Source of the DNA: Patescibacteria group bacterium
GTDB taxonomy: Bacteria; Patescibacteriota; Microgenomatia; JAMCYU01
Length of the DNA stretch: 62,416 nt
Reading direction: 5' to 3'
Assembly: GCA_023473585.1 (NCBI GenBank)
Contig: JAMCYU010000008.1
Location: forward strand, 1 to 62,416
Part shown: piece after piece, positions 35,446-61,028 of the stretch
Layout: each line of letters starts with the position of its first letter
Position numbering within the stretch: position 1 is the stretch's first letter
Notes under the pieces: generated by a model
Databases searched by the model: none
Seen by the model: only the letters and a program-made list of their open reading frames with translations
What the model was told of the DNA's origin: nothing
Program-made: the position numbers and the translations under genes

Positions 35446-36510
35446 TTATTTCGTTTTTCTTTCGCGTTTTTTTAATTCCTCTACGCCATCACAATATCCA
35501 TTAATGTATCCCTGTCTTTCCCTGATTCTCGCCGCCAAAACATGAAAAAGAACGACCACGATTAAACCGATAAGTAAAAGCGCTAGTCCCTGATCTTGAA
35601 TTTCCGAAAAAGGATTCAGTTGATCTTTAACTTCTTTATACGGAACCGAAATCAGCAAAAACCATAATTGTTGATCGATTTTTACCGGCGCATAACCGAT
35701 AAGTGCTTTATATGATTGATCGTCAGGATAATTTAATTCCGTTATCACGCTTCCTTCTTCTTCTTTTGTCAAATTAGTCGCCAAATTTGGATTGCTATTT
35801 AGTAGATTAATACCCGGATTTCCCGCTATTGACGAAGCCACGATTTCTCCTCCCTTATTTAAAAGCGTTTGCACCGAATACGGAGATATGGTTAAGGGCT
35901 TAACGTATTTTTCTACTAAATCTTTCGTGGTCACAACGGCGTAAAGAACTCCGTTAAATTGGTTCTTGTAAAAAAGCGGGGTTGTAATCAGGATGATCCA
36001 AGTCCCCTTTGCCGGGCCCGTCCTGGCGATAACCGGTACTGAAACATACACTTTTCCTCCTTGGGTCTGACTTTTCGCCCAAAGGAAATACTCACGGTCC
36101 GAAAGATCAGTTCCTTCACCTACTTTTTGTTTCTGGGGATTTTCCGACCAAACAATTTTACCGTTTTTATCAATAACACCAAGGCTGGTTATGGGCCGGT
36201 CAATCATTTCCTGCACAAATGTTTGGGTAATTGCCCTGCCTTTTACCGGATCCAAGGATTTTATTTCTTCAATATTGGCCAAAAGTAATAATTTTGTTTT
36301 TCGGGACTCGAAAAAATCACTGATAGCCAAAGCTCCGGCGCGCGCCAAAATCAATTCGCGCGTTTTGGCTCTTTCCGAAAGGATTTGTTCGGCTTTTTTG
36401 GTCGAATTCCAGAAAAGAAAAACCCCAATTGTCGTCATTATTACCAGAATCACCCCTAAAAACACCTGAAGAGAGGAGGTTTTTAAAAAACAACCAACTT
36501 TCTTTACCAT
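35446..36510 (-). CDS. Cache-like extracytoplasmic sensor domain membrane protein without an output domain
   Basis: TM, ~260-aa Cache-like region (REYFLWAK, PLFYKNQFNGVLYAVVTTKDL), TM, then a short tail. The ATG at 36510 is preferred over the TTG at 36546. Confidence 0.65.
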   Translation of the reverse strand: MVKKVGCFLKTSSLQVFLGVILVIMTTIGVFLFWNSTKKAEQILSERAKTRELILARAGALAISDFFESRKTKLLLLANIEEIKSLDPVKGRAITQTFVQEMIDRPITSLGVIDKNGKIVWSENPQKQKVGEGTDLSDREYFLWAKSQTQGGKVYVSVPVIARTGPAKGTWIILITTPLFYKNQFNGVLYAVVTTKDLVEKYVKPLTISPYSVQTLLNKGGEIVASSIAGNPGINLLNSNPNLATNLTKEEEGSVITELNYPDDQSYKALIGYAPVKIDQQLWFLLISVPYKEVKDQLNPFSEIQDQGLALLLIGLIVVVLFHVLAARIRERQGYINGYCDGVEELKKRERKTK

Positions 36511-36542
36511 GTTTCTATCGTAACATTTTGAAAAATTAAAAG

Positions 36543-37946
36543 TCAAACTTTGAGGCTTGGCAGAAAATATCTTTTGCCGGCATTATAGAGAAGTTTAAGG
36601 TTTAACCAGTTATCAAGGCGTTTTACTTCTTGAAAAATTCGGCTCGGTCTTAAATAAAACTTCCGGTAGGCTTCGCGCCATTTTTGGGAAACCAACTCCG
36701 GATTTACCTCTCCCAAAACAAACATCCCCTTTCCTTCCAAAATGCCAAAGTCATCCCAATCCGTATTTAAAAGTTGACCGTTTTTTAAAATTTCTTCGTA
36801 CAACGGGGCTCCGGGAAAGGGAGTCGCAATGCTAAAATGGGCTATATTTGGATTAAGTTTAAGCGCAAATTTAATCGTTTGTTCCATGGTTTTTGCGTTT
36901 TCGTCTAAATTCCCGAACATAAAAAAACCCATGGTCTCAAGTCCTGCAATCTTGGCCAACTTAAAAGCCTTTTCAATTTGAAAAAGAGTCAGTTGTTTTT
37001 GAATCTTATCCAAAATCTTTTGCAACCCGCTCTCTACCCCAAAAGCCACTCTTTTGCAACCCGCTTGTTTCATTTTTTTGAGAAGTACCAGATCAACTTT
37101 ATCCGCCCTAATCCCGTTATTGGTAATCCACGGCACTTTATTTAAACCTTTTTTAGTTAACAAATCACAGATTCTAAGAGCTCTTTTGCGATCCAGATTA
37201 AAAACATCGTCCTGAACGCCGATTTCCGTTGCCCCCATATCTTTAATTAAATATTCCCACTCCTCCGCGACTTTTTCCGCGCTTTTTGGTCTCCACGTAC
37301 GGCCGCAAATTCCCTTAAAACAATAAACGCATCCGTAAGGACAACCCCGCGAGGTCATGATGTAAAAAGCTCTATCTTTATCGGTTTGCCGGTCGCGCAA
37401 TGGCTGAGTAACGCTGTATTTTTCAATTTGGAAAAGGTTGTATGCGGGAAAAGGCAAATCATCGAGATTTTTCTTAAGCGGCCGAGTAGGATTATGAACA
37501 ATTTTCCCTTTATTTTTAAAAGACAAACCAAAAATATTTTCTTTTTTTCTTTGACCGTTAAGCATGGATATGATTTCCAAAATGGCTTCTTCCCCTTCAC
37601 CTCTTACCACCATATCAATTCCCTTTTGTTTTAGGGATTCATCGGGCATTGCGCTGGGGTGCGGTCCGCCCAAAACAATGAGTGCCCGAGAATATTTCTT
37701 AATTTGTAAGGATAACTCCCAGGCGTTTTTAACCAAAGGCGTTGTTGCCGAAAGACCAACGAGGTCAAATTTATTTTTTTTGAGAAGGGATTTTAAAGAT
37801 TGTGGCGGTTCAATCGCCGTATCGCAAACCGTAACTTCATGTCCCGCTCTTAATAAAACCGCGCCAATGGAGGCTAGTCCCAGAGGAATTTGTTTAGGCA
37901 TATTCCAGATTTTGGCTTGAGGATAGACTAAAAGAATTTTCATCTT
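36543..37946 (-). CDS. B12-binding (class B) radical SAM enzyme
   Basis: MKILLVYPQ..PLGLASIGAVL forms the B12-binding domain. SRGCPYGCVYC. Confidence 0.85.
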   Translation of the reverse strand, partial: KMKILLVYPQAKIWNMPKQIPLGLASIGAVLLRAGHEVTVCDTAIEPPQSLKSLLKKNKFDLVGLSATTPLVKNAWELSLQIKKYSRALIVLGGPHPSAMPDESLKQKGIDMVVRGEGEEAILEIISMLNGQRKKENIFGLSFKNKGKIVHNPTRPLKKNLDDLPFPAYNLFQIEKYSVTQPLRDRQTDKDRAFYIMTSRGCPYGCVYCFKGICGRTWRPKSAEKVAEEWEYLIKDMGATEIGVQDDVFNLDRKRALRICDLLTKKGLNKVPWITNNGIRADKVDLVLLKKMKQAGCKRVAFGVESGLQKILDKIQKQLTLFQIEKAFKLAKIAGLETMGFFMFGNLDENAKTMEQTIKFALKLNPNIAHFSIATPFPGAPLYEEILKNGQLLNTDWDDFGILEGKGMFVLGEVNPELVSQKWREAYRKFYLRPSRIFQEVKRLDNWLNLKLLYNAGKRYFLPSLKV

Positions 37947-39280
37947 GTTTTTTCCATAAGTAGATAATGGTGGTGAGCCAAAAAGAACTTTAACCATTTT
38001 GGCCAGTTTTCAAACCGGCTTTCCTTAATTTTTTCAATTTTACTTTTTAAAAAAGGCAAATTTCGGAAATATTTCCCGGTTTCGTAAACATCCAAGATAA
38101 ACCACGGGATATCAAACACCCCAAGTTCCCTAATCTCCCAAACTCCAGCCTTCCTAAAAGTCTGCTTTGCCGACCAACCCGACATTTTGCTCAATTGTCC
38201 ATGATCCCACTTTTTTCCTGATAAAAAATGAAACAACCAATGGATCAAAACTCCCGGGTTCAAATAATTTTGAGTAATTATTAAGACGTACTTATTAGTT
38301 AAATCAGCCATACTTTTAATAAATTCATGGGTATCAGTTGTCTGCTCGAAGGCGCAAAAGTTCCAAACCAAATCAGGTTTTGTTTGCCTCTTGGGTATTT
38401 TAAAAACCTTTCTTTCTCCTAGAAGCTGATTTTGAGGATATTCCAAGACCGATTTAATCTTATATTTATTAATCATTTTGACCGCAATTTTTTCTAAAAT
38501 ATATTTTTCGTATTCTGTCCCGAATCCTAAATCGGCTGGCTTTTTTTGACCCGTTATAAAGACAATCGAACCAAAGTTATTAACAAACGGCAGTTTTTCG
38601 AAAAAATCATTTAACTTTTTTGAAAATTGCTTCTCCAAAAAACCTACGGGCGGCATTCTCAAGGGTAAATGTTTTTGTTTTTCGATATTCCAGCTATCAG
38701 CAAAAACTTCATCGCAAAGTTTAAGATCAACAAAGGTTTCTTCCGGCGAGCCGCATCCGGATATTTTTTGATATTTTTTTTCGCCCATTAAAAGAATCGC
38801 AAAACGGCGGGTTAAATAATAAGGTAAGTTCAAACTCCATTTGGTCGGTTCGCTGATGAAAACTTGTCCTCCGGTTTTTAAAACGCGGGCAATCTCCTCA
38901 AGGGCCTTCTTTTGATTCTCTAGATGATGAAGCACCCCTACCATGTAAACAAAATCAAAGCTTTGGTCCGGAAATAGCAGGTTTTCCGCATCCCCAACCA
39001 CCAGTTTTACCTTACCTTTATTTTCCTTAAGAAGAACCGGACTGATATCTAAAGCCGTAACTTCATTATCTTTATCAAAAAGACTTAAAAACTCGCTTCT
39101 TCCCGCCCCGATTTCCAAAATTTTTTTCTTTTTAAAATGATATTTTTCTAATTCTTGAGTAATTTTTTGTTTTAAATAAACAAAGTACGGCCGAGACATC
39201 AGTTCTTCGTATGCGGTTAGGTCTGAAAAGGTTTTAATTTCTTTTTTCTTCCTTGGACTTAACTTATAAATATTTTTCAT
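37940..39280 (-). CDS. Class I SAM-dependent methyltransferase with an extra C-terminal domain (446 aa)
   Basis: ILEIGAGRSEF..LDISP..GDAENL. Confidence 0.75.
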   Translation of the reverse strand: MKNIYKLSPRKKKEIKTFSDLTAYEELMSRPYFVYLKQKITQELEKYHFKKKKILEIGAGRSEFLSLFDKDNEVTALDISPVLLKENKGKVKLVVGDAENLLFPDQSFDFVYMVGVLHHLENQKKALEEIARVLKTGGQVFISEPTKWSLNLPYYLTRRFAILLMGEKKYQKISGCGSPEETFVDLKLCDEVFADSWNIEKQKHLPLRMPPVGFLEKQFSKKLNDFFEKLPFVNNFGSIVFITGQKKPADLGFGTEYEKYILEKIAVKMINKYKIKSVLEYPQNQLLGERKVFKIPKRQTKPDLVWNFCAFEQTTDTHEFIKSMADLTNKYVLIITQNYLNPGVLIHWLFHFLSGKKWDHGQLSKMSGWSAKQTFRKAGVWEIRELGVFDIPWFILDVYETGKYFRNLPFLKSKIEKIKESRFENWPKWLKFFLAHHHYLLMEKTR

Positions 39281-39827
39281 TCTTTAACTCAACAGTTAAC
39301 TGTGGCGTCTTTTTAAACAAAATCCCTTTCATGCCTAAATTTATTGCGGCTTCAAGTTTTATTTTATCGTCATCAATATAAAGACACTCTCTTGGTATTA
39401 CCCCAAGCTTTTGACAAATAAGAAGATAAATTTCCGGGTCTGGTTTCATAAGTCCTGTCTCTCCCGAACAAATCATCATATCAAAGTACTTATCAAGGGA
39501 AAATCGGTTAACCGCATCTTCGAGAAAAGCTTTCGGACAATTCCCTAAAAGTCCCAACTTGTATTTCGGCCTTAATTTTTTAACCAAAGACAATATTCCT
39601 TCTACCGGAATGCTTTGTAAGTAATATTCTTGCCGTGTTTTTTCCTCCCACTTTATATCCTTTCCTAATTCCTGTGCCCATTTTTGCCAAAATTGTTTTT
39701 CCGAAGTTTCTCCCCGCCAAAAAGGCTGCCATATTTCCAACGATAAAATCTTTTCCCTTTTAACAATTGGGTTTAGACCGTTTTTAATGATGGTGTCGTG
39801 GAAATCAAAAATTATCGCTTTAATCAT
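39264..39827 (-). CDS. HAD-superfamily hydrolase
   Basis: IIFDFHDTI (DxD) and YIDDD. Confidence 0.8.
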   Translation of the reverse strand: MIKAIIFDFHDTIIKNGLNPIVKREKILSLEIWQPFWRGETSEKQFWQKWAQELGKDIKWEEKTRQEYYLQSIPVEGILSLVKKLRPKYKLGLLGNCPKAFLEDAVNRFSLDKYFDMMICSGETGLMKPDPEIYLLICQKLGVIPRECLYIDDDKIKLEAAINLGMKGILFKKTPQLTVELKNEKYL

Positions 39828-40870
39828 GCTTTTAAAAAATTTGCCCCAACGGTTATTAAGGTTTTTGGGCTTAAAAGAATATTAGTATAGCTAACATTAG
39901 CTAAAGGACAATAACATTTTTTATTCCTAATTGATTTTCGAACTAAATCACTTTTAGGCGAAAACCAGATTTTCTTAAAATCAAAATTGTTCTCTTTCAG
40001 GTTCCCTAAAATATCCGCCCGGACACAGCAAGGCCAGATATCGCCGTTTGAAGCAATTTGCGCTGAAGCTAAACCGGCGTAGCAAGGAATAACCTGTCTT
40101 TGTTCTTTTAAGAACTTCATAACCAAATCGTAATAAACAAGCCGGAAGGCCCGCTGTATTCTGGGTAAAATCGCCAATTTTTCCTTCTTCATTCTGGTTT
40201 TTAAATAGTTAATAGCTGTTTTATAATCCCGCAACGAAGGTTGTATTTTATTACTCAAATTATCGAGTTCGACCCGATTCTCCGCGATTTCCGTAATGTA
40301 TGAATCAGGCTTTAACGTGTCTAAAACATAGTCGGTAATCCTTGGAAATTCCTTAACATTATTTTTAGAAATAACGGTATGAATACCGATCGTCAGATTT
40401 CTCTTTTTCAGTTTTTTTAGTAAAGATAACGTTTTGACTGTTTTATCGAAATTACCCTTAATCCCCCTGGCCTGGTCGTGCTTTTCCCTTATTCCATCAA
40501 GCGATAAATTAATCACAAAATTTGTTTTGGGATTGGCCTTGGTAATTTTTCCAACATCATTAACAATCTTTTCTGTTAATAAGCCATTAGAGGGAATGTT
40601 TATAATTTTTGGGTTGCCTATCCGGCATAAATCACTAACAATTTCCATAAGATCAGCCCGCAAGAAGGGTTCTCCGCCAGATAATGTCACCCAATAAGGA
40701 GAATGTCCCAGTGATTGAAAAATCCGTTTCCACTCTTCTTTTGTTAGTTCAACCGTAGCTTTTTTTTGCCAAATATTGCAGGTTAAACAGCGGGAATTAC
40801 ACTTATTAGTTAAGCTGAAGGTATAACTTAAGGGCAGAATTTTAAAAAAAGAAAAAATTTTAAACAACAT
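39824..40870 (-). CDS. Radical SAM protein with a SPASM/twitch-type C-terminal Cys cluster
   Basis: CNSRCLTCNIW, CYAGLASAQIASNGDIWPCC and CYCP. The start at M23 (40870) is preferred. Confidence 0.8.
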   Translation of the reverse strand: MLFKIFSFFKILPLSYTFSLTNKCNSRCLTCNIWQKKATVELTKEEWKRIFQSLGHSPYWVTLSGGEPFLRADLMEIVSDLCRIGNPKIINIPSNGLLTEKIVNDVGKITKANPKTNFVINLSLDGIREKHDQARGIKGNFDKTVKTLSLLKKLKKRNLTIGIHTVISKNNVKEFPRITDYVLDTLKPDSYITEIAENRVELDNLSNKIQPSLRDYKTAINYLKTRMKKEKLAILPRIQRAFRLVYYDLVMKFLKEQRQVIPCYAGLASAQIASNGDIWPCCVRADILGNLKENNFDFKKIWFSPKSDLVRKSIRNKKCYCPLANVSYTNILLSPKTLITVGANFLKA

Positions 40871-41747
40871 TGAGGTTTTTTGTTGATTCCACCCTGTCCC
40901 AAATAGTGTGCTTATTTTTTTGAAAATGATAATCATAAGTCCCGAGGATTCTGGCCATCATTTCCAATAAAGCCACGGCTGGCGACCAGATTAAATATTT
41001 AAAATCAGGCTTTAAAACTTTTACCCAAGCAAGAAGAGTTTTTCTTAAACCTAAAGTAGAAACTTGATAACCTTGAATTTTTTTTAAAGCTAAATGGCCG
41101 CTATAGATTCTTCTTCTTTGCTTCATAAATTCGAATAAATTCTCTGTCCCTTTATTTAAAACAATCGCGTCGGGAACGTATTTAAGAGTGTACCCTTGAC
41201 CAACAATTAAAGGTTCAACCGTGGCTTCGTCAACGGCCGAAGCGTAAGGAATTCTTTCAAAGATTTTCCGGTAAGCCACCATCTCCCCCATTTTTGGGGA
41301 CATTAAAGCCACTTGGTGATGAAGCTCCCATAAAAGGTGGGCGGCAAAACCAAAGAAATGATCTTGAGGGTCTGAAGGAATCGGCCGGGCTCCGGTCATC
41401 CCGATTCTTGGATTGGAAAATGGCCTTGCCAATTTTTCAATTACATCCTCCTGTGGAATCGTGTCCGCCCCGGCGCAAACCACAATTTTCCCTTTGGCAT
41501 GTTTTAGAAATAAATTAACGGCCGAAGATTTCCCCAAACGTTCTTTTTGAATCAAGAGTTTGATTCTTTTGTCGGTTTTGGCCAGGCGTTTAACAATGGG
41601 AATTGTCTTGTCAGTGCAACCAGAAGCCACGACAAATATTTCCTTAATCTGGGCTTTATTAAGTTCTTGTGACAGTATGGCCTCAAGGCAACGGGCAATG
41701 TTTTGTTCCTCGTTGTAAGCCATCACGCCGATACTTGCTTCAATCAT
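40860..41747 (-). CDS. Family 2 glycosyltransferase (soluble, ~295 aa)
   Basis: IGVMAYNEEQNI and CAGADTIP. The start MIEASIG makes an ATGA overlap with the upstream stop. Confidence 0.85.
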   Translation of the reverse strand: MIEASIGVMAYNEEQNIARCLEAILSQELNKAQIKEIFVVASGCTDKTIPIVKRLAKTDKRIKLLIQKERLGKSSAVNLFLKHAKGKIVVCAGADTIPQEDVIEKLARPFSNPRIGMTGARPIPSDPQDHFFGFAAHLLWELHHQVALMSPKMGEMVAYRKIFERIPYASAVDEATVEPLIVGQGYTLKYVPDAIVLNKGTENLFEFMKQRRRIYSGHLALKKIQGYQVSTLGLRKTLLAWVKVLKPDFKYLIWSPAVALLEMMARILGTYDYHFQKNKHTIWDRVESTKNLNVV

Positions 41748-44494: not shown

Positions 44495-44502
44495 TTTAGT
44501 TT

Positions 44503-51403: not shown

Positions 51404-51457
51404 CTTAAAAACCTTAAAATTTTGAAGAATTTTTCTGACGGCTTCAAAACGTTTAAA

Positions 51458-52723
51458 TCATCCATTTTCGCCTTTGGCGAATTTTTGGCTTAATTTTAAG
51501 GTGCTTAAAATTAAAACGGTTGCTGACGAAATAACTATCCCGATGATTTGAGAAAATCCCCCACCGTCTCGGACTAATTGTGCCCCCAAAACTTGGTTAG
51601 AACTCTCAAGACGGTTGGTAAATTGCGGCCGCACGAAAAATACCGAAATAACCAAAAAAGATAAAAGAAAACTGATCCAGCCGTAAAAAATAGGACTCAC
51701 TCTCTCCTTTTTTTCTTTTGGGAATTTTGGAATAAACGGAAGAAGGCGTAAAAAGACACCGGGATTAGTTTTTAAAACCTCGGCAATAATGACCAAAACA
51801 ACGGCGAGAAAAAAAGAAAAGCTGAAATAAAACTCCGGCAGGAAACGATTCGGAACCGGTAAATAAGTCGTACTAATACTGGGCGCCACATAAATAAGCG
51901 TAAAAAACACTAAAAAATGACTCAAGCTTAAAAAAATGGCTTGTAAACTGGGCTTTCGGTCAAAAATCAAAAAAGAAAGGGCACCCAAAACCGGGACCAA
52001 AAAGAACGACGGCGGGATGAGATTCAATAGAAGTTTAACGAGTGCTTCTCCGTGCTCGGCTTGAAAAATTTTGTAAACAAAGCTCGGGTGATACCAAAAA
52101 CTGGAAAGGCCGGCCGCGGCGATCAGAATCATTAAGGTCGACAGCATTTTAAACCGGCCCAAACCTAAAAGCATCTCCGAGTAGGTCAGTAAGCCCAAAA
52201 AGATTAATAAGGTAAAAAGACCGAAAGGACTGGTTAAGGCGACCAAAGCGACTCCAACCGCCGAAACCAAAAGCAAACCAATGGTGGGATTGCGTAAAAA
52301 ACGCAGATTGAAAATTAAAACGATGGGCAAAATCGTTAAGGAAACCAGATGCGCACTGTCGCCAACGGCAACCGTATCATAAAATCTGGAGGCTGACAAA
52401 GTGTAAATTAAGCCTGCTAAAAGACTGATTAAGCGTCTATTGGTAATTTCCCAAACATAAAAATATAAAGAAACCGGTCCAAAAATATAGGCGCCGAAAA
52501 TTAAAAACTTTAAAATTTCTTCTCTGCCTCCGGCAAGAAAAGGCAAAAGAGGCGCCGTGAATTTGCTAAAGGGCAAGGTCTTGTCCATGAGTGGCCAAAT
52601 CAAAAAAAGATTGAGGATTAAAACAAGAAGGGGCAAAACCAAGGTATGCAAATTTAAACTGATGCGGGGAGCGGCTGGGGTTGACAATTTTGCATGATTA
52701 CTTAAGCGTCTAAAAAACCGCAT
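51458..52723 (-). CDS. Polytopic membrane protein resembling the TM half of the GT-C-like paralogs (421 aa)
   Basis: More than 10 TM helices and no ectodomain. Confidence 0.6.
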   Translation of the reverse strand: MRFFRRLSNHAKLSTPAAPRISLNLHTLVLPLLVLILNLFLIWPLMDKTLPFSKFTAPLLPFLAGGREEILKFLIFGAYIFGPVSLYFYVWEITNRRLISLLAGLIYTLSASRFYDTVAVGDSAHLVSLTILPIVLIFNLRFLRNPTIGLLLVSAVGVALVALTSPFGLFTLLIFLGLLTYSEMLLGLGRFKMLSTLMILIAAAGLSSFWYHPSFVYKIFQAEHGEALVKLLLNLIPPSFFLVPVLGALSFLIFDRKPSLQAIFLSLSHFLVFFTLIYVAPSISTTYLPVPNRFLPEFYFSFSFFLAVVLVIIAEVLKTNPGVFLRLLPFIPKFPKEKKERVSPIFYGWISFLLSFLVISVFFVRPQFTNRLESSNQVLGAQLVRDGGGFSQIIGIVISSATVLILSTLKLSQKFAKGENG

Positions 52724-52876
52724 GGTTTTATTTTAGTAAAAATGCCATGGGTTATCAAGAATGAAGAAGGTATAAACTCCTTTAATTATTCTTAGCAGAT
52801 ATCAAGTTACTACTTGAATTTTAGCGTTTAATGTTTTATTAATATATCTATAGTAAAGAGAAGGGGGGTGATAAAA

Positions 52877-53008
52877 ATGAAAAAAATATTATTCATCTTG
52901 GCCATATGTTTCCTTTTAGGCTTTACCTTAGCCAACGGTCATAAAGGTGATGGATGCGGATGGCCGACAACTCCATTTTCTAGTTTAAAACTTTGTCCCT
53001 ATTTATAA
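52877..53008 (+). CDS. Unlisted 43-aa secreted peptide with two Cys in the mature part
   Basis: Hand translation gives MKKILFILAICFLLGFTLANGHKGDGCGWPTTPFSSLKLCPYL*. The SD GGGGGGTGA lies 6 nt upstream. An AT hairpin follows (AAAATAAAAA/TTTTTATTTT). Confidence 0.45.
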   Translation: MKKILFILAICFLLGFTLANGHKGDGCGWPTTPFSSLKLCPYL

Positions 53009-53064
53009 ATTAAAATAAAAACAGATCTTATTTTTATTTTATTTGCTTTCAGTAATTCTGTTTT

Positions 53065-53685
53065 TTAACCTATTTCTTTCTTTGACAAGAAGGTTTTTCT
53101 CTTCCCCATTGATATTTTACCTCCCTCATCATTTTTCTCTTCCAACACATAAGAGTAACTAAACCACCAAAAGAAAAACAACCACAAGATTAAAATAATA
53201 ACCGAGGAATAATCATGGATGACCGTCGCCGGAACCCCTCTTACATAAACGATCAAAATCGCTACTAAACTGATTCTTAAAATATTAACAAGGATTGTTC
53301 CTAAAATTCCTATCATGGCACATTCGATTTTTGAAACCTTCGTATAGGCTCCCTGTAAACCAGTTGCTAGGGTTAGCAATAAAACTAACATTGATTGCCA
53401 ACCTAAACAATTCCAGGAAATGATGATTTTTTCCCAGACGCCGTTTTTTAAAATACTGATACTGGTCGCCGAAGCGCTTGCCTGCTGTCCCATCGCCCCA
53501 AGAAAAACGACAATCATCCGTGTTTCCAGGGGTAAAATAAAACTTTCAATCAGCCGATACCAACCCATCTTTAAGAAAATCGAGGTTAAAAGTTCGTTAA
53601 AAGTTGTTAGGAAAGGTAAAAGCAATAAGAAAATCGCCAAGAGACTAAAAATCGTTAGAAATGTTGCCTTAGGATTCCCCTTCAC
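53065..53685 (-). CDS. Exosortase/archaeosortase-family protein (short form, 206 aa)
   Basis: Polytopic. The candidate catalytic Cys/Arg/His contexts are WNCLGWQS, VNILRISL and VIHDYS, in the order expected for the family. Confidence 0.6.
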   Translation of the reverse strand: MKGNPKATFLTIFSLLAIFLLLLPFLTTFNELLTSIFLKMGWYRLIESFILPLETRMIVVFLGAMGQQASASATSISILKNGVWEKIIISWNCLGWQSMLVLLLTLATGLQGAYTKVSKIECAMIGILGTILVNILRISLVAILIVYVRGVPATVIHDYSSVIILILWLFFFWWFSYSYVLEEKNDEGGKISMGKRKTFLSKKEIG

Positions 53686-56208
53686 CTAATTACCTCCGAT
53701 TTGTTGATTTAACCATTGATTGGTCTTATCAATTTGGTATGCCAAACGGTATTCCTCAAGCGCCCTTAACGTCTCACCCCTGGTAAAATACATCTTCCCC
53801 AGGGTTACATGTTGACGGAAAAGAAAATATTTATTATCCGTCTTTGGTCTTAAGTCTTTCATGGCTTCGATATTTTTGCTCGTGGTCGCCTGATAAAGAC
53901 TTTTTGGGGCGGAAAACTCTAAAAAAGGGTGGTTGTCGGTATTTTCTTTGGCTCCCTGAATAAACTTAACTATGCCTTCTTGACCCAACGCTAAATAGCT
54001 TAAAAACTGTTCGGCACTTTCAATGAAAATCCGCCCAAATTCATTTTTGATAAGTTTCTGCTCTAATTTCTGGCTGATTAAATCAGCATCTAAATTTATC
54101 GGTTCCTGACTGCCCAAGAGCAGCAAATCGTAAGAAGAAAGATTGTCCCAAACAGTAGTATAGGGAAAAACCGATTGAAAAGTCTTAATCTCCGTTTTTA
54201 AATCGTCTGTTTTAAGACTGTAAAGTTGAATCCAGTGGGCAAAAATGCCACCCTTATTAAGACGTTTTTTCGCCAACTCAAAATACTCTTTGGTGAAAAG
54301 TTTAGAATTTCCCGACAGCCAAATATTCGAAGGTTCGGAAGTAATCACATCGTATTTTTCCGTTCCTTTCAAAAGATAATTTCTACCGTCCCCTGTCACC
54401 ACTTTTAGTCTTTGGTCTTCTATGGCCCGATGGTTTACCTCACTGAAATATTTATTGGCTTCAATAATGGCTGGTTCAATTTCCACCGCCTCGATATTTT
54501 TGGCCGGAAATTGTTCAACAGAACCTAGGGTTATCCCTGATCCTAACCCAACCACCAAGACATCTTCTGGATTAGGATGTAAGATCATCGGTAATGCTCC
54601 TGAGAGAACCTGTGTGTCAATATCCAAACCGGTTGAAGCATCGGTTTTCCCGTCAATGCGCAAAAAAACCTGCGCCCCGAGTTTTTTAACGGCCACTGTT
54701 ACCTCAATCCCTTCCCGATAATAAAGAAAGTCGGAGCCCTGCATTCTTTTTTCGGCTTGCTCTTGGCTGTCTTGGATGAAAAAACGCCAATTGGCATATG
54801 GCCCGGAAACTAAAAAATGTTTGTTCCATAATGGCCATAAATAACCAATCAAAAGAATGACTAAGATAACAAAAGAGATCAAAATTCTCGGAAAACTTCG
54901 CTTGTCTTTGACAATAAGCCAAACTGCCAAAAAAAGATAAATCGCTGCCATCAGCCAAATTCCCTTCTGGACGCCGATTCGAGGAATCAGGAAAAAACCG
55001 GCTAATAAGGAACCAAAGACGCCTCCTAGGGTATTAGCCGCGTAAAGACTGCCGACTGACCAACCGACTAATTTTTCTTCTTCCTGATAGAATTTAATAC
55101 CCAAGGGCAAAAGCAAACCCATAACCAAAGTCGCCAGAAACATAAGAAAAAAGGAAAGGATAAATTGCCAAAAAAGAATCGACCCAAAAGAAGTGTAGCT
55201 GGTTTTGATTATTTCCAAAAGGAAAAAGGGTATCTTTTCAAAAAGAGGGATGCTAAAGATTATCCATGTGCCTAAAATCGCTAAAAAAACGGCCAGCCAA
55301 ATTTGGCTAAATTTCTTTCCCCATTGGCGAAAAATAAGACTCCCGATGGCAATCCCTAATAAGAAACTGACTAAAACCGTCGCAAAAGCATATATCGAAG
55401 CACCGAAAAATAAAATTAAAGTTCTCGTCCAAAAAACCTCCATGGCCAAACCTGCCAAACCAGTCAGGAAAAAAACTCCCAAAAGAAAATAATTTGTGTG
55501 AAGACTATCAGGGACTATGTTCGGCCGCTTGCCAGCGATTTTTCTGTCTTCACTTGATACTTGATACTTACTACATAATACTAATATCGTGATACCGATA
55601 ATTAAATTTATACCCGCGGCCAGCCAGATGGTTTCACGAACGCCCAAAAAAGCAATCAGAAAAAACCCGGCTAAAAAAGCCCCCATGACGGCGCCCAAAG
55701 TATTGATAAAATATAAAAAACTTACCCCCTCCCCTATTTCCTGATCTTTAAGAAGAAATTTCGCGATCACCGGCAAAGTTCCACCCATCAGGATTGTTGG
55801 TAAAATCAAAGCCAAAAAACTTAAAAGAAATGTCAAAAATTGAAAACCATAAAAAGATGAACCGATATTTTGGCCAACAAGAACCTGCAATCTTTCGACG
55901 AATTTAAAAATTAAAGGAGTTAAAAAAGCATATAAACCTATTCCTAATTCTAGAAATGCGTAAAGTTTTAGGGAATTCTCTTTTTGATCGATAATTCGGC
56001 CAAAAAAAAAGCTGCCCAAGGCTAAACCGCAAAAAAAGATAGCCAAAACAGAAGCGGTTGCGTAAGCAGTTGTCCCGAAAACCAAAGCCAGCTGCCTTTG
56101 CCAAACAACCTGATAGGTTAGGGCGCAAAAACCGGAAAGGAAAAAGAAGAGAACCAAAAGTCTTCGTAAGTTAATCATCGTAATTATAAACTTATAACAA
56201 CTTGCCAT
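53686..56208 (-). CDS. Fused polytopic membrane / spermidine-synthase-like / TPR protein (840 aa)
   Basis: ~14 TM helices, then VLVVGLGSGITLG and DVITSEPSN (aminopropyltransferase/MTase fold), then TPR-like repeats. An alternative start at M11 (56178) would remove the overlap. Confidence 0.75.
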   Translation of the reverse strand: MASCYKFIITMINLRRLLVLFFFLSGFCALTYQVVWQRQLALVFGTTAYATASVLAIFFCGLALGSFFFGRIIDQKENSLKLYAFLELGIGLYAFLTPLIFKFVERLQVLVGQNIGSSFYGFQFLTFLLSFLALILPTILMGGTLPVIAKFLLKDQEIGEGVSFLYFINTLGAVMGAFLAGFFLIAFLGVRETIWLAAGINLIIGITILVLCSKYQVSSEDRKIAGKRPNIVPDSLHTNYFLLGVFFLTGLAGLAMEVFWTRTLILFFGASIYAFATVLVSFLLGIAIGSLIFRQWGKKFSQIWLAVFLAILGTWIIFSIPLFEKIPFFLLEIIKTSYTSFGSILFWQFILSFFLMFLATLVMGLLLPLGIKFYQEEEKLVGWSVGSLYAANTLGGVFGSLLAGFFLIPRIGVQKGIWLMAAIYLFLAVWLIVKDKRSFPRILISFVILVILLIGYLWPLWNKHFLVSGPYANWRFFIQDSQEQAEKRMQGSDFLYYREGIEVTVAVKKLGAQVFLRIDGKTDASTGLDIDTQVLSGALPMILHPNPEDVLVVGLGSGITLGSVEQFPAKNIEAVEIEPAIIEANKYFSEVNHRAIEDQRLKVVTGDGRNYLLKGTEKYDVITSEPSNIWLSGNSKLFTKEYFELAKKRLNKGGIFAHWIQLYSLKTDDLKTEIKTFQSVFPYTTVWDNLSSYDLLLLGSQEPINLDADLISQKLEQKLIKNEFGRIFIESAEQFLSYLALGQEGIVKFIQGAKENTDNHPFLEFSAPKSLYQATTSKNIEAMKDLRPKTDNKYFLFRQHVTLGKMYFTRGETLRALEEYRLAYQIDKTNQWLNQQIGGN

Positions 56209-59200
56209 TTATTTTAATGACTGCCAAATGAATTTGCAATCGCCTTTTTTGCCACCACTCGATCACCTTAGGCAAGAAGATCGCCATCGGTATAAAAAGC
56301 AGGGCTTTTTCCGGCGCTGCCGGAGCAGTAACTTCGTAAGTTATAAAAGCAGTAAGTCCGCCAAGTTTATCCACATTAACCGGGAGATCAATATTCATGT
56401 AATATGCCCTTATATTTCCACTAAGACCTGTTCCTGACGAAGCTGCTAGATTTGATGCATCCTGAAAAGTGGAAACGCTAAGGTTCTCTCCCGTTGTCTG
56501 ATTTAGAGGACCATACCCAACAGTATCGGCCACTTGTACAAAAGCATACGTCGCACTCGTATAGAAAATTTCGAAATTTCCTTCAGCTCCTGATGAACGC
56601 TTTGTCGTCGAAGATTCGGGAATATAAGTATTAAATGTAAAACTTGGATCAGAAGTGCTTTTTGCCGTTTCTTGCCCAACAAACCAATTCACCGTTTTTA
56701 TACCCGTATATGTACCGCTTGTAGGAATTACGAAGTTATAAGAAACAATTAGTTCCGCTCCTACCGCATAAGTCTCATTAATTTTATCTCCTAAAGCTTC
56801 AACCGTCACCGTGTCCCCGGTTTGCCAATTAGTACTAAAGTTACTGGAAATATCAATAAAAATCACATTTCTCCCTGCTTGTTGGGTGACTACTGTTGCG
56901 TAATAAGTACTCGCCGAAGGATATTCGACTGCTGTGCCACCGGTTATTGTTACTCGGTAACGCGTGTTAGCCGCAGCTGTGTTTGTCCCCACAATTTTTA
57001 AATAAGCATTGTAATTGGAGAGTGAGCTTTCGGGTAAATAAACCGCTGGTGCGCCGATTTGAGTATAAGTTATAGGTAAAGCTCCGCTTAGCTGACCAAC
57101 ATGATATTTAGCCGTATTGCGATGAGTTGTACTTGTTTGGTTGTAATAACTATAAGTATAGGTAATAAGCAGTTCTCCCCCCTTAAGGTTCATTACCTGC
57201 GCGTTATTATAAGAAATGATGGTGTTAGAGGCTTTGTAGTTTAATTGACCAAGAGCAGCTCCATCGGCCACAACTCCTACCGGTTCGTACATGGCGACAA
57301 AATCCATTGTTGTTTTGTTGGCTCCGTCTATAAAAGTAAAAACTGCCGAAGCGCCTCCAACCGGCAATATTTTTGGATTTGTAATTGGCTGATTGTTATT
57401 TATTTCTCCTCTAATTTGAGCGTCTGTTGTACCAGCGGAAACTTGACCAACATACTCCACCCAGGCCTTTTGGATAGTGATATTGGCCTCTTGCAGATTG
57501 GGATTAAGTGTACTTGTCAAAGTATCAGTCGAACCCGAACTAGATTGACTATTCTTGGTTTGTAAGGCGTATCTGACGGTTTTTACTTGCGTTGTTACCG
57601 TATCATCATATTCGTAAGTCACGATTAATTTAGCAGAATCAGTATTGTGAGTTTGGTTAACATAGGCGTTAAAATTATAAGTATTATTTCCTTGAGCGAC
57701 CTCGCTGGTTACATCCATACGAATAATAAAAGGTTGACTTTCACCAGAGTTTGTATTTATAGTGGTAAGTGATTGAGTTATGAAACTGTTAGTTCCCCGA
57801 CGGAACTTCATCTCACCGGCCGTTACATTATTAGCCGAAAGAATAAACCGCCATTCAACATAAGCATGACAGGGATTCGTCCCGGTAGTTCCGGTTAAGC
57901 AATCAACCATTGTTTCTGGAATATCTAAAGAAAATTGCGGCCCATTGGAAGAACTATAAGTTCCGGCATCAATCCCTTGAGTAGCCGTAATATCCGTTGC
58001 GCTGGCATATTGATAAATTGGCATTTCAATGGTCTTAATTTGGGTCCCCGGGGAAGCAAGGGCAAGAGGAACTTTGAAAGATAGCCAAGAAAGGTTCATG
58101 GATAAAATCAAAAGTACAGCTAGGGTAGTTTTTGCCAGCCACCTGATTTTCCTGCGCCTGATGGTAAAATGACCAAACCGGTTATTGGCTGTTTTTAAGG
58201 CCAAATAGGGATTGGAGCTGGAAATTAGATATGGTAATTGGGAATTAGTTTTTAATTCTTGAGTGCTTAATGCTTCATGCTCCATGCTTAATGAAGGTTT
58301 AAATCCCGGCAATATCCCTGAAATCCATCGGTAGAATCTCCCTCGTTGTAGGACATCGGTAATCATGCCTGTCTTGGGGGTTCTAAACCAAGGCCCTTCT
58401 TCTTTTTCGATAAAGCCCTTAACCGAGGCGTAGGCCTGAAAAGGAACGAGAAGATAAGAAAGTACCACAAATGAGAGTATCCCTAAATAGTCTTTCTCCT
58501 CACTCTCCTCCAGGAAAAGACCCACGGTATTGACTAGGGGTAAGGAGAACATGTTGGTTAAAACCAGAGACCAACCCCAAAGAGCCGTCCAGAAAGGGAG
58601 CCTGGCTTTAAAGATGGCTTCAGAGACAAACCAGCAAAAGGTCCCCAAAAGAAAAAAGGTGGCCTGGAGATAATAGGGAGACATAAAGAGAAACTCAAGT
58701 TTCTCCATGTAGGTAAGGTTGGAAGAACCTAAGAGTTTACCAAACATTTTCCTAACGTTAAAGGAATGACCCTCGGCCCAACGCATCCGCTGGCGGACTA
58801 ACCTCTTGATCGTCGAGACACATTCGGCCGGACCTTGAATGTAAGGAGTGTAGATGACCTTGTAACCCTGTTCGTAAAGACGCAGGGTTAGTTGGAAGTC
58901 TTCGGTAATTGAGGTTAACCAGCCGAGCTTTTTTAAGACATCCATCCTGATCATATAGACAGAGCCGGCGATCTGCTTTAAACCCCCGTAGACCTCGGCC
59001 CCTGACCTCTCAACGACATAAGATCCCGCGTACTCGCTTCTTACCCCCCTCGTAATCCAGTTCTCTGATTTGTTAAGAACGTGCCACTGGTAACCCTGGA
59101 TGGCCGCAACGGGTGAGTTTTGGTTCCTCCCTTGGTGACTAAATTCCTGATTCCTAATATCAAAGTTAAGTGTTCCGCAGACCGCTTGGAAGTACTTTAA

Positions 59201-60583
59201 GAATTGGGTGATGGTGTCAGGATAAGGCACAAAGTCGGAGTCAAAAACCAAGACAAACTCGGTTCTTGGGTCGGTAATCTTCATCGCCTCTTTAAGGGCC
59301 CCTCCCTTGTAGCCTTCCCTTGATTCCCGGTGAATAAGTTTGACTTTGGGATGATTCTTCCAGTCCGCAAGAATACTGGTGGTTTCATCATTGGAATCAT
59401 CAATAACGATAACCTCGTAGTTTTGGTAATCCATACTGGTGCAGGCCGAGAGAAGTCTGTTAACGACCTTCTTCTCGTTATACATGGGTAAATGAATGGA
59501 AACAAAGGGAGATCTTTGGAGAATCACTCCTTCTAGGTTGGGTTGTAATCCACCAACATATCCTTTCCGCAGACCAGAAGCACTATCTAAACCAACAAAC
59601 CTAAAAAGAAATCTCATCAACCACGACCGCTTCCTCGTTCCTGATTCCTGATTCTCTCCTTCTTGTCCGATATGACGAGAGAACCCTAAGACTATCGCCA
59701 AGGTTAAATAGTATTTAAGCGAGTAAAGGAAGAAAACCGAACCGGAAAATAAAGCGATTGAAGCAAAGATTAAGCCCAACTTATTCTCTTGAGGAACCTG
59801 ACTATAGATCCTCAACCAAGCTAAAAGAAGATAACTTATAGGGGCGGAAAAACCGAAGCCAAAGAAGAAGGACTTAAATATATTTTTAAAATTTGGCGGT
59901 GGTGCTGGTGCCAAAGAAGGCATAAAGGCTTCAAAAACCGTTCTGATTCTATTAATATTGGCGGTCGCAAGTTGAACAAGGGAGTTTGAGGTATGGGTTT
60001 TAGCGTAAGCAAGGCGCTGACAATAATAAGACAGGTTAAATCTTCTCAAGATGTTTTGCACGCCATGATTGCCCAAAATTGGCTTACCATTTATTTGAGG
60101 TAAACAAGCAACGATTTTATGCGTTGAAAGCTCTGGATATTTAATGACTAGTGTCAAAATTGTCTTTTCAACTAGCCGGGGAGTTTGATGATAATATTTT
60201 TCTCTTTTGGGAATTTTATCCCAGAGAGCTCCCGTTTTTTCTCCAAGCGGAGCCTGCTCATAACGATTTTTCCAACGATAAAAGATCGTACGGGAGATAC
60301 CGTATTCTTGACAAATTTCGGCCACGGGTTTACCAGTAAGTTTTTTTTCGATCGTCGCTAGCCGCTCTTTTGGAGAAAGCAGTTTTCTGGGGATTTTCGC
60401 ATTGTGAAAAAGCGGTTTAAGTGAACTAATTTTAAGGTTATTTTCTTTATATCTTTTTAACCATCGGTAAAAAAGAACGCGGGAGATTCCGGCTTCCCGA
60501 GCAAGCCTAGTAGCTTCTTCATTTTTATTTAAGAAGCGCTTAATAAGACTTAATCTTTGTTTTACAGTCAGTTTAGCTCTCAT
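56192..60583 (-). CDS. Fusion protein: two transposase-type HTH domains, a processive GT2 (QxxRW), a ~640-aa Thr/Ser/Asn-rich ectodomain and a C-terminal TM anchor (1463 aa)
   Basis: One continuous ORF. HTH motifs: GISRVLFYRWLKRY and GISRTIFYRWKNRY. GT2 motifs: LPMYNEKKV, VIDDSND, FDSDFVP and RQRMRWAEG. The C-terminus is APAAPEKALLFIPMAIFLPKVIEWWQKRR. Confidence 0.8.
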   Translation of the reverse strand: MRAKLTVKQRLSLIKRFLNKNEEATRLAREAGISRVLFYRWLKRYKENNLKISSLKPLFHNAKIPRKLLSPKERLATIEKKLTGKPVAEICQEYGISRTIFYRWKNRYEQAPLGEKTGALWDKIPKREKYYHQTPRLVEKTILTLVIKYPELSTHKIVACLPQINGKPILGNHGVQNILRRFNLSYYCQRLAYAKTHTSNSLVQLATANINRIRTVFEAFMPSLAPAPPPNFKNIFKSFFFGFGFSAPISYLLLAWLRIYSQVPQENKLGLIFASIALFSGSVFFLYSLKYYLTLAIVLGFSRHIGQEGENQESGTRKRSWLMRFLFRFVGLDSASGLRKGYVGGLQPNLEGVILQRSPFVSIHLPMYNEKKVVNRLLSACTSMDYQNYEVIVIDDSNDETTSILADWKNHPKVKLIHRESREGYKGGALKEAMKITDPRTEFVLVFDSDFVPYPDTITQFLKYFQAVCGTLNFDIRNQEFSHQGRNQNSPVAAIQGYQWHVLNKSENWITRGVRSEYAGSYVVERSGAEVYGGLKQIAGSVYMIRMDVLKKLGWLTSITEDFQLTLRLYEQGYKVIYTPYIQGPAECVSTIKRLVRQRMRWAEGHSFNVRKMFGKLLGSSNLTYMEKLEFLFMSPYYLQATFFLLGTFCWFVSEAIFKARLPFWTALWGWSLVLTNMFSLPLVNTVGLFLEESEEKDYLGILSFVVLSYLLVPFQAYASVKGFIEKEEGPWFRTPKTGMITDVLQRGRFYRWISGILPGFKPSLSMEHEALSTQELKTNSQLPYLISSSNPYLALKTANNRFGHFTIRRRKIRWLAKTTLAVLLILSMNLSWLSFKVPLALASPGTQIKTIEMPIYQYASATDITATQGIDAGTYSSSNGPQFSLDIPETMVDCLTGTTGTNPCHAYVEWRFILSANNVTAGEMKFRRGTNSFITQSLTTINTNSGESQPFIIRMDVTSEVAQGNNTYNFNAYVNQTHNTDSAKLIVTYEYDDTVTTQVKTVRYALQTKNSQSSSGSTDTLTSTLNPNLQEANITIQKAWVEYVGQVSAGTTDAQIRGEINNNQPITNPKILPVGGASAVFTFIDGANKTTMDFVAMYEPVGVVADGAALGQLNYKASNTIISYNNAQVMNLKGGELLITYTYSYYNQTSTTHRNTAKYHVGQLSGALPITYTQIGAPAVYLPESSLSNYNAYLKIVGTNTAAANTRYRVTITGGTAVEYPSASTYYATVVTQQAGRNVIFIDISSNFSTNWQTGDTVTVEALGDKINETYAVGAELIVSYNFVIPTSGTYTGIKTVNWFVGQETAKSTSDPSFTFNTYIPESSTTKRSSGAEGNFEIFYTSATYAFVQVADTVGYGPLNQTTGENLSVSTFQDASNLAASSGTGLSGNIRAYYMNIDLPVNVDKLGGLTAFITYEVTAPAAPEKALLFIPMAIFLPKVIEWWQKRRLQIHLAVIKINGKLL

Positions 60584-61002: not shown

Positions 61003-61028
61003 AATATTCTCCCTTAAGGGAGAATATT
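61003..61028. other. Perfect 11-bp hairpin in the long AT-rich intergenic region
   Basis: AATATTCTCCC-ttaa-GGGAGAATATT. Confidence 0.4.

Follow-up and report, generated by a model that had tools for sequence, protein, structure and literature searches.

Exosortases are often encoded in exopolysaccharide loci; PEP-CTERM proteins, rich in Ser and Thr, are probably glycoproteins (10.1101/2023.06.07.544157). In Firmicutes, the XrtG system comprises a Firmicu-CTERM protein, the exosortase XrtG and two associated glycosyltransferases (PMC12854382). Archaeosortase A (ArtA) cleaves the tripartite signal of its substrate, which becomes lipid-anchored, and needs Cys173, Arg214 and Arg253 together with ethanolamine-lipid enzymes (PMC9263693). 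The standard route of envelope-glycan decoration employs a GT-A lipid-sugar synthase, a flippase and a GT-C enzyme (PMC11754754). This report concerns a block of 15 genes, designated g1 to g15 from position 60583 down to position 35446, in a contig of 62,416 nucleotides (nt) from a Patescibacteria group bacterium (JAMCYU010000008.1, assembly GCA_023473585.1), the whole of which is termed the window. We propose that the block is a modular cell-surface glycoconjugate locus built round a one-to-one exosortase-substrate pair, a reading to which we assign a probability of about 60%. The proposed pair, g3 and g1, and the gene between them have the following features, where aa denotes amino acids, GT2 glycosyltransferase family 2, TM transmembrane and HTH helix-turn-helix.

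56192-60583, minus strand: g1, a 1463-aa fusion and the proposed exosortase substrate
59984-60583, minus strand: g1 residues 1-200, two transposase-type HTH domains (HTH_Tnp_1, HTH_28/HTH_23)
58484-59521, minus strand: g1 residues 355-700, GT2 catalytic domain
56318-58069, minus strand: g1 residues 839-1422, predicted extracytoplasmic ectodomain (584 residues)
56240-56317, minus strand: g1 residues 1423-1448, tripartite sorting signal APEKALLFIPMAIFLPKVIEWWQKRR (PE motif, hydrophobic helix, basic cluster)
53686-56208, minus strand: g2, an 840-aa fused MFS/spermidine-synthase protein with a TPR-like end
53065-53685, minus strand: g3, a 206-aa, four-TM protein of the exosortase/archaeosortase family, in an unnamed subfamily
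53407-53409, 53275-53277 and 53215-53217, minus strand: g3 codons of the candidate catalytic residues Cys93, Arg137 and His157

The g1 protein runs from its two HTH domains through two or three TM helices to the GT2 domain, and from there through three more TM helices to the ectodomain and the C-terminal sorting signal. Hydropathy places the helices that flank the GT2 domain at residues 239-301, 673-717 and 820-838. The catalytic motifs of the domain (DSD448, TED560 and QRMRW598) make up the D, DxD, TED, Q(R/Q)xRW set of processive synthases, and it most resembles PgaC/IcaA, CelA/BcsA and chondroitin synthase, with scores under the NCBIfam equivalog cut-offs (87.8 vs 422 bits for PgaC_IcaA, 57.8 vs 699 for CelA and 31 vs 550 for NodC). 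The original prediction invoked the logic of CsbB and GtrB for a cytoplasmic GT2; this large GT2 is not of that lipid-sugar synthase type, as its motif set is that of a processive synthase such as BcsA, PgaC or NodC. The HTH fusion is conserved among Patescibacteria homologues, and the homologue from Anaerolineae (Chloroflexota; L013 1556-4654, where L and P numbers denote related loci and proteins) carries a response-regulator receiver (REC) domain in place of the HTH domains. It may be speculated that these N-terminal domains provide a regulatory input. In the predicted topology the HTH domains, the GT2 domain and the basic cluster would lie inside the cell, with the Thr/Ser-rich segment outside. 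Thr and Ser make up 22% of the ectodomain, which has no family match in Pfam or NCBIfam and can be aligned only with its closest orthologue (L024). A homologue search with the ectodomain returned nothing, low-complexity words having probably filled the candidate list.

The tail of g1 recurs. Its consensus, [V/I]-P-E followed by ∼18 hydrophobic residues (often with PF[L/I]P) and an Arg/Lys cluster, is found at the ends of g1 homologues in nine other loci. The g1-like protein of L020, the sole such case, has neither a tail nor an exosortase gene nearby. Within the window a tail of this type occurs on just one genuine open reading frame (ORF), that of g1. Searches of seven tails against the known NCBIfam CTERM models at E≤10 gave no usable match, the only hit of note being one sub-threshold Heimdall-CTERM. 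Two variants were seen among the related loci. The tails upstream of the g3 homologues in L042, L059, L060, L067, L068, L088 and L089 have a doubled motif, V-[V/I]-PEFTTVPEN, before the helix and basic cluster. In L022 (1-20585) two giant HTH-GT2 proteins (3807 aa, and 2509 aa with a β-helix domain) stand in tandem, each paired with an exosortase; the first pair is interrupted by an IS200-type Y1 transposase gene.

The g3 protein passes the exosortase/archaeosortase signature TIGR04178 (27.2 vs a cut-off of 23), as do three homologues (26.7-36.4). Many relatives carry a recorded PF09721 domain, and some are named exosortase/archaeosortase family protein in the source databases. The earlier label ‘exosortase-like protein' was thus correct as to identity, and what it missed was the organising role that g3 appears to share with the g1 tail. 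Three residues, Cys93 (in WNC[L/I]GWQS), Arg137 (N..R) and His157 (HD), are invariant in an alignment of 43 sequences. The AlphaFold model (mean predicted local distance difference test score, pLDDT, 83) contains four membrane helices, and hydropathy and helix positions suggest that the three residues lie near the outer membrane face, where the PE motif would also sit. Comparison of the model with the Protein Data Bank (PDB) by Foldseek gave no match under E 0.8. When 1.84 billion cluster representatives were searched exhaustively with phmmer, 241 clusters were recovered, 134 of them at E≤1e-10, indicating that g3 belongs to a compact family of its own. Both g3 and its homologues score far under the cut-offs of the named subtypes (XrtA-XrtX, CrtA-C, ArtA-F), the best values being 21-33 vs 225 for CrtC, 17 vs 102.75 for XrtG, 27 vs 125 for XrtM and 28 vs 100 for ArtC.

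Linkage between g3 and the tail was assessed in metagenomes. The g3 alignment, used as a profile, picked up at least 382 relatives there; 79 of their loci were fetched, 69 with enough upstream sequence. In 46 of the 69 an ORF bearing the tail ends within 3.6 kb upstream of the g3 homologue, and in 41 within 0.7 kb. Among the other ORFs of these loci the rate is 27/1803 (1.5%), some of which are second copies of the system. As the tail detector was a simple pattern, 46/69 is a lower bound. Natural fusions join the two partners directly: P0255 and P0262 comprise synthase (GT2), ectodomain, tail and exosortase as a single chain, and P0216, P0217, P0223, P0249, P0268 and P0205 (428-474 aa) are exosortase-ectodomain-tail fusions. 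Recurrence of the tail, metagenomic linkage and the natural fusions, taken together, make the assignment of the g1 tail as the likely substrate of g3 the best-supported statement on the locus. A different fusion, P0181 (384 aa), joins an exosortase-like domain to a class I S-adenosylmethionine (SAM) methyltransferase and hints that methylation may be tied to the sorting step.

Of the described architectures, that of XrtG appears closest. Both systems have a short exosortase (∼190 aa in XrtG), an apparently dedicated adjoining substrate and a processive-type membrane GT2 in the locus, and both are found in organisms with no classical outer membrane; Patescibacteria are generally considered to lack an outer membrane. 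The g1 GT2 domain aligns to positions 46-352 of the 439 in the associated glycosyltransferase model TIGR03111, and g3 to positions 70-182 of the 187 in the XrtG model. The second glycosyltransferase associated with XrtG is probably of the PTPS_related/GT-C type. The scores, however, are far under the cut-offs (17 vs 102.75 for g3 and 24.1 vs 363.95 for g1 against TIGR03111) and the tails have no Firmicu-CTERM match. In contrast to XrtG, the substrate here shares its chain with the synthase and HTH domains, the locus adds as many as five GT-C paralogs and several radical SAM enzymes, and the locus type is found in Patescibacteria and Chloroflexota. The PEP-CTERM/exosortase A-B systems of Gram-negative exopolysaccharide loci share the tripartite signal, with Pro-Glu abutting the TM helix and a basic cluster, the Cys/Arg/His membrane enzyme, the linkage to polysaccharide genes and the Ser/Thr-rich substrates. 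They differ in that their exosortases have eight or more TM helices, whereas g3 has four in ∼200 aa, and that each enzyme serves tens of substrates scattered in the genome rather than one adjoining protein, although for the present system the single tail-bearing ORF was counted in the window and not over a whole genome. The motif also differs, being [V/I]PE followed by PF[L/I]P and not PEP, and the PEP-CTERM model gave no match. The locus would work like XrtG and PEP-CTERM systems yet, with scores far below the cut-offs and tails unmatched, it stands outside every named subtype.

Archaeosortase A and PGF-CTERM of Haloferax volcanii belong to the same superfamily as g3 and provide an experimental precedent for Cys/Arg-dependent cleavage of a tripartite signal, coupled to attachment of a membrane anchor for which an amine-bearing lipid is required. 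Subfamily and motif are nevertheless different, the archaeal substrate is an S-layer glycoprotein and not a synthase fusion, and the present locus has no genes of the ethanolamine-lipid synthesis type. The three-component glycosylation systems (CsbB/YfhO, GtrB/GtrA/GtrC, SccN/SccM) resemble the block in that a GT-C protein with a large external domain adjoins a small GT2, and one member of the GT-C family described below carries Pfam YfhO. By contrast, the GT-C family here falls under Pfam and NCBIfam thresholds, a GtrA-like flippase is lacking, the small GT2 (g10) is not clearly GtrB-like, and five paralogs are clustered, one of them without the first external loop. Radical SAM enzymes form part of no described system of that type. 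Finally, g1 shares with the processive synthases BcsA, PgaC/IcaA, NodC and hyaluronan synthase the D, DxD, TED and QxxRW motifs and the flanking TM helices, but differs in the N-terminal HTH or REC domains of its family, in an ectodomain of 600 to >3000 aa and in a sorting signal on the same chain.

The remaining genes of the block begin beyond an intergenic break that separates g1-g3 (module A) from g4-g14 (module B). The GT-C paralogs, which include a gene upstream of the block, are as follows.

61397-62386, minus strand: g0, a 329-aa short GT-C paralog, outside the earlier limits of the block
52724-53064, minus strand: the 341-nt intergenic break that divides g1-g3 from g4-g14
51458-52723, minus strand: g4, a 421-aa polytopic paralog of the GT-C transmembrane domain
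47240-49321, minus strand: g7, a 693-aa GT-C-fold glycosyltransferase
44503-47247, minus strand: g8, a 914-aa GT-C paralog
41744-44494, minus strand: g9, a 916-aa GT-C paralog

The g7 protein consists of ∼11 TM segments, a periplasmic α/β plus β-sandwich domain and a C-terminal TM segment. Its AlphaFold model, built with a 36-sequence alignment, has a pLDDT of 91.9 and a predicted template modelling score of 0.91. In a Foldseek search of the PDB the best 26 matches are all GT-C enzymes (STT3/OST, AglB, PglB, AftD, DPY19, AftA; E 6e-9 to 3e-5), and the first transporter appears only at E>0.1. Profile comparison by hhalign shows that g8 (probability 97.2%, E 3.7e-11) and g9 (90%, E 1.7e-6) are homologous to the g7 family over ∼375 columns, and g9 matches g8 at E 2e-48. 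The original prediction had identified these giants as GT-C-like and named their being plain transporters as grounds for rejecting it; that objection fails, as they are glycosyltransferase-fold proteins. Sequence searches of g7 and g8 against PDB chains gave no match at E≤1, and the paralogs reach no Pfam or NCBIfam family threshold: PF10131 (PTPS_related) is sub-threshold for g8 (24.8) and g9 (21.3 vs 26.4) and does not match g7, and an NCBIfam scan of every GT-C paralog at E≤10 gave nothing credible, just two chance matches of g7 (E 0.26-0.5). Pfam YfhO (PF09586) is carried by one distant g7 relative. Within the g7 family E41, in an SIE motif, and E169 are invariant. The g4 protein, which is related to g7 (BLAST E 4e-14) and has homologues in L010, L011, L012, L017, L018 and L019, may be non-catalytic because it is without the first external loop that carries this SIE motif. 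In g0, TM segments and the conserved periplasmic motif FWLN..RGG..YLVV..YHDF fit the family consensus, and its homologues (483-604 aa) adjoin homologues of g4 or g7 in L011, L017 and L018.

The OST-like top matches raised the idea that the paralogs are oligosaccharyltransferases. It was not adopted in the strict sense, because the WWDYG motif of STT3, AglB and PglB is absent from g0, g4, g7, g8, g9 and all 36 family members, and the sequons of g1 are not enriched. The C-terminal TM helices of g7-g9 were likewise considered as exosortase signals and ruled out, since the PE motif is missing from them and their tail is long, basic at first and then acidic. These ends (g7 47240-47330, g8 44503-44590, g9 41744-41830) are shared with a relative in L004 (12182-12832) and consist of the last TM helix, a basic stretch and the motif W-x(2-5)-(D/E)-E-D-(E/S/Y), a shared tail on the cytoplasmic side. 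The g7 family is rare, with 51 members in 5.8 billion proteins and 12 loci among 185,579 species-representative genomes, the latter in a profile scan of genome contigs built on 20 of the closer sequences. Labels of several binned metagenome-assembled genomes (MAGs) in this set (‘Pseudomonadales', ‘Gammaproteobacteria', ‘Bathyarchaeia') may be unreliable. A trio resembling g0, g4 and g7 occurs in a Daviesbacteria locus (L017 1281-20978) without g1 or g3, within a teichoic-acid-like locus whose other genes encode two TagF-like proteins, a Wzx-like flippase, a GT4, a cytidylyltransferase and two more GT-C proteins (PTPS_related/PMT_2 and TMEM260-like-TPR). In L008 (838-2432) two classical PEP-CTERM proteins (VPEP...RRRRR) are encoded ∼8 kb from a distant g7 relative, which itself adjoins a SPASM radical SAM gene.

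The other genes of module B, and g15, encode tailoring or accessory proteins, HAD denoting haloacid dehalogenase.

50717-51403, minus strand: g5, a 228-aa class I SAM methyltransferase
49318-50724, minus strand: g6, a 468-aa B12-binding radical SAM enzyme, CX3CX2C at residue 209
40860-41768, minus strand: g10, a ∼300-aa soluble or peripheral GT2, probable start 41747
39824-40936, minus strand: g11, a 370-aa radical SAM enzyme with a SPASM-type C-terminal domain, CX3CX2C at residue 46
39264-39827, minus strand: g12, a 187-aa HAD-IA phosphatase
37940-39280, minus strand: g13, 446 aa, a class I methyltransferase domain and a 290-aa C-terminal domain without a family match
36543-37997, minus strand: g14, a 484-aa B12-binding radical SAM enzyme, CX3CX2C at residue 219
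35446-36546, minus strand: g15, a 366-aa membrane protein with dCache_1 (53.6 vs 45) and no output domain

The g6 and g14 proteins, 35% identical to each other, contain PF02310 and PF04055 above the cut-offs and are thus class B (cobalamin-binding) radical SAM enzymes. Both lie far under the named class B equivalogs (HpnJ, BchE, PhpK, HpnR and others), the best being HpnJ at 227 and 203 vs 577.6 bits. The C-methylation suggested in the original prediction consequently goes beyond the data, as scores so far below every NCBIfam equivalog cut-off do not establish methylation. In g11 the SPASM domain is recognised (PF13186, 29.3 vs 21.5), but its C-terminal domain has just five Cys, a number that fits one auxiliary cluster and is lower than usual for a full two-cluster SPASM maturase. 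The best PDB match of g10 is 6yv7 (50.6 bits). Its similarity to GtrB (sll0501) is weak, at 26 bits over the N-terminal 107 residues, ArnC scores 20 bits, and no TM helix is predicted. An orthologue 52% identical to g10 adjoins a SPASM radical SAM gene in L004/L005; the GT2 and SPASM genes are translationally coupled in the window and in L004/L005, and in L009 both are present but apart. These relatives mix sugar-nucleotide genes with radical SAM genes, namely an NAD-dependent epimerase/dehydratase in L004/L005 and an NTP_transferase in L009, and HAD genes are also interleaved with radical SAM genes. Orthologues of g5 61-75% identical are found in L010, L011 and L012. Among the genes of module A, g2 matches NF037959 with 136.8 bits against a cut-off of 40 and has relatives only in the closest related loci (L024, L025, L104). 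Whether g15 belongs to the system is doubtful, as no relative occurs in any related locus fetched, although it overlaps g14 by 4 nt.

The ORF table yields exactly 15 ORFs between 35446 and 60583, all on the minus strand, and with it the overlaps and the sole real break at 52724-53064 given in the original prediction were reproduced, as were all its domain calls in Pfam and NCBIfam scans. Junctions within the block include short overlaps of 4, 4, 4, 8, 8, 17 and 17 nt, one abutting pair (g2/g3) and two small gaps of 8 and 54 nt. Three longer overlaps (25, 58 and 77 nt) become smaller with a downstream start codon; if g10 starts at the ATG at 41747 its overlap falls to 4 nt. The same-strand run extends beyond the block, from 32113 to 62386. 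As most of the window's genes are on the minus strand, co-directionality is unremarkable here; the tight coupling is what is notable. The limits of the block also need adjustment, for the gene list stands but the ORF upstream of it, the further GT-C paralog g0, belongs to the system, while g15 may not. A promoter-like sequence, TTGATA-17-TAAAAT at 52758-52730, lies directly upstream of the g4 start codon. It is weak evidence, since a promoter and terminator scan gave counts no higher than the shuffled expectation and only the position of this site is suggestive.

Conservation was analysed from two viewpoints. Seen from g7, the 15 independent loci contain g3 in eight, a g1-like synthase in six, other GT-C paralogs in nine, methyltransferases in eight and radical SAM genes in six. 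Seen from g3, the 22 metagenomic loci of at least 10 kb contain a g1-like synthase in 19 and a GT-C paralog in 13 (∼60%), and then a methyltransferase in five, a B12-radical SAM enzyme in four and g10 and g11 in one each; g2, g12 and g15 are found in none. Relatives of g12 and g15 were absent from every fetched locus. Nearly the whole array is kept in one Patescibacteria MAG (L002/L010), with g2 missing, and the closest orthologue of g1-g2-g3 (L024, 54-68% identical) is on another contig of that MAG. Co-location holds in Patescibacteria and in Chloroflexota, and L014 is a compact g1-g3-g7 array. This hierarchy shows that the locus is modular, with a widespread g1+g3 core, frequent GT-C partners and a variable tailoring cassette. 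The expectation that the 15 genes co-occur in relatives is therefore borne out in part: co-location is non-random in two phyla, but the genes are not one co-conserved unit. The dedicated surface-glycan pathway of the original prediction likewise survives as an envelope glycoconjugate pathway, which is the best reading because equivalent blocks of relatives hold sugar-nucleotide, TagF-like and Wzx-like genes, and not as a fixed pathway of 15 genes, its core being g1 and g3.

A mechanism can be proposed on this basis. The GT2 domain of g1 would polymerise a β-linked glycan, and the same protein would present a variable, probably glycosylated surface domain. The g3 enzyme would recognise the PE motif on the outer side of the last helix and cut after or near PE, possibly handing the new C-terminus to an acceptor, as proposed for archaeosortase A and by analogy with sortases. 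The g1 glycan itself, a lipid or an amine from the spermidine-synthase-like fusion g2 could serve as acceptor, although the last suggestion, made by analogy, carries little weight. In module B, with g0, the five GT-C paralogs may glycosylate the g1 product or its ectodomain from lipid-linked donors outside the membrane, while g10-g14 and g5-g6 (GT2, radical SAM enzymes, HAD phosphatase and methyltransferases) may make and tailor the donor sugars in the cytoplasm. Tailoring of sugar donors is favoured over modification of a peptide or lipid because relatives interleave nucleotide-sugar genes with radical SAM genes and because g4-g15 leave no space for a precursor-peptide gene. A more specific version, which we consider rather unlikely, is that the exosortase joins the C-terminus of the ectodomain covalently to the co-extruded glycan or to an aminopropylated acceptor made by g2, and that the resulting protein-glycan conjugate is then decorated by the GT-C enzymes with sugars tailored by the radical SAM enzymes. 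If true, it would give the first defined acceptor of any bacterial exosortase.

Several observations weigh against a glycoconjugate locus built round g1 and g3. The function of the g3 subfamily is deduced from sequence, and a cleaved ectodomain would stay tethered to the synthase through the upstream TM helix. The ectodomain has ten N-x-S/T sequons, with 10.2 expected from its composition. On the donor side, g10 is not clearly a polyprenyl-phosphate sugar synthase and the block contains no GtrA-type flippase. All the radical SAM enzymes score well under each named family, with peptide- and lipid-modifying enzymes among their best matches. An amine acceptor is argued from analogy, g2 being absent from most related loci. 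Lastly, the two modules are parted here by the 341-nt gap with its promoter-like site, and in L024 module A is followed by toxin-antitoxin genes and integrase remnants, with no module B.

Other explanations have to be set against the same evidence. If all 15 genes formed one pathway, in which a GT2 and GT-C enzymes working by CsbB/YfhO or GtrB/GtrC logic build a heavily C-methylated glycan and the exosortase is a minor accessory, the confirmed GT-C fold, the family member with Pfam YfhO, the tight translational coupling over g5-g15, the near-complete synteny in one Patescibacteria MAG and the class B architecture of two radical SAM enzymes would all be accommodated. This is nevertheless unlikely, as g1 is of the processive and not the CsbB/GtrB type, relatives do not keep the 15 genes together as a unit, the strongest linkage is that of g1 with g3 rather than of a GT2 with GT-C proteins, and methylation by the B12 enzymes is not established by their similarity scores. 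The opposite view, that modules A and B adjoin in a variable island of surface genes but function independently on different targets, draws on the break with its promoter-like site, on the occurrence of module A without module B in L022-L024 and of GT-C trios without g1 or g3 in L017 and L018, and on the mobile-element and toxin-antitoxin genes in related loci. This view sits poorly with g3 lying within 10 kb of a g7-family gene in 8/15 independent g7 loci, with GT-C paralogs in 13 of the 22 long g3 loci and with a linkage that extends to both Patescibacteria and Chloroflexota and includes the compact g1-g3-g7 arrays (L014), and we regard independence as quite unlikely.

Two further proposals concern the radical SAM enzymes. 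Together with the methyltransferases they might form a set like those of ribosomally synthesized and post-translationally modified peptides (RiPPs), of proteusin or sactipeptide type, that acts before export on a peptide, either the g1 ectodomain or a different one. Two class B radical SAM enzymes, a further radical SAM enzyme and methyltransferases make a combination reminiscent of polytheonamide maturation. In the PDB, g11 is matched best by SkfB, a sactipeptide maturase, and the NCBIfam matches include ScmE, WgkB and HxsC (g11) as well as ApyD and RiPP C-methyltransferases (g6 and g14); the exosortase-methyltransferase fusion P0181 would also fit. All of these matches, however, are far under the family cut-offs, the overlapping junctions leave no room for a precursor-peptide gene in g4-g15 and the C-terminal domain of g11 has few Cys. 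The nucleotide-sugar genes interleaved with radical SAM genes in relatives and the coupling of GT2 and SPASM genes in the window and L004/L005, with both present in L009, point to sugars instead, which makes a peptide-modifying set improbable. Alternatively the radical SAM enzymes could act on a membrane lipid or polyprenyl carrier, in the manner of HpnJ, ladderane- or Tes-type enzymes, and so produce the anchor that the exosortase attaches to g1. The best NCBIfam matches of g6 and g14, HpnJ and the lipid-biosynthesis B12/radical SAM family TIGR04072, the weak matches of g11 to HpnH and Tes and the prenyl-derived lipid received by ArtA substrates are in keeping with such a role. Again the scores are all far under the cut-offs, and since the enzymes are found in only ∼20% of g3 loci they cannot supply a generally required anchor; this proposal is highly improbable.

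The role of exosortases after cleavage, and the reason for their placement in polysaccharide loci, have been open since their sequence-based description (10.1101/2023.06.07.544157). In the present locus the presumed substrate is fused to a processive synthase, and in some relatives to the exosortase as well, which would couple protein sorting to glycan synthesis within one or two chains. The natural enzyme-substrate fusions (428-1227 aa) offer self-contained objects for studies of cleavage, transpeptidation and acceptors. The locus also gives Patescibacteria, whose envelope and host-attachment structures are poorly known, a sorting system with a defined motif, and its three radical SAM enzymes are unusual company in a glycan locus. 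In the literature searched we found no paper that links exosortases to Patescibacteria, radical SAM enzymes to GT-C systems or the Candidate Phyla Radiation, or cobalamin radical SAM enzymes to polysaccharide, and none on a glycan locus with this set of enzymes. New here are a substrate fused to both a synthase and a putative regulatory domain, chains that unite enzyme and substrate, a family of GT-C paralogs and a cassette of radical SAM enzymes.

Around the block the window has the genes of an ordinary bacterial chromosome (TopA, DprA, PBP2, MreBC, Fmt and two tRNAs), and an Rfam scan of the window found the two tRNAs and nothing else. Part of the block occurs in a second assembly, GCA_023380895.1, where 7951 bp of JAMCSI010000029.1 are 100% identical to window positions 53167-61117; a partial NCBI protein recorded as from a ‘Patescibacteria group bacterium' (P0052) is 99% identical to g3. 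In L002/L010 a 278-aa protein with a 23S_rRNA_IVP domain (4527-5363) is encoded between the giant and the exosortase gene, at the place of g2, and the window has its own IVP-family gene at 30190-30588. Outside the block, a 691-aa Wzy_C (O-antigen ligase-like) and TPR protein overlaps the start of a fourth radical SAM gene (347 aa) at 23567-26673 on the plus strand. An AbiEii-family nucleotidyltransferase toxin gene lies at 17737-18396 on the minus strand, and in L023 AbiEii pairs adjoin the exosortase gene. Genes for a nitroreductase-family protein (253 aa) and a YcaO protein (449 aa) adjoin at 15483-17599 on the minus strand, in a stretch of low GC content (14000-18000, down to 0.33), and may form a RiPP cassette of the azoline or thiazole/oxazole-modified microcin (TOMM) type.

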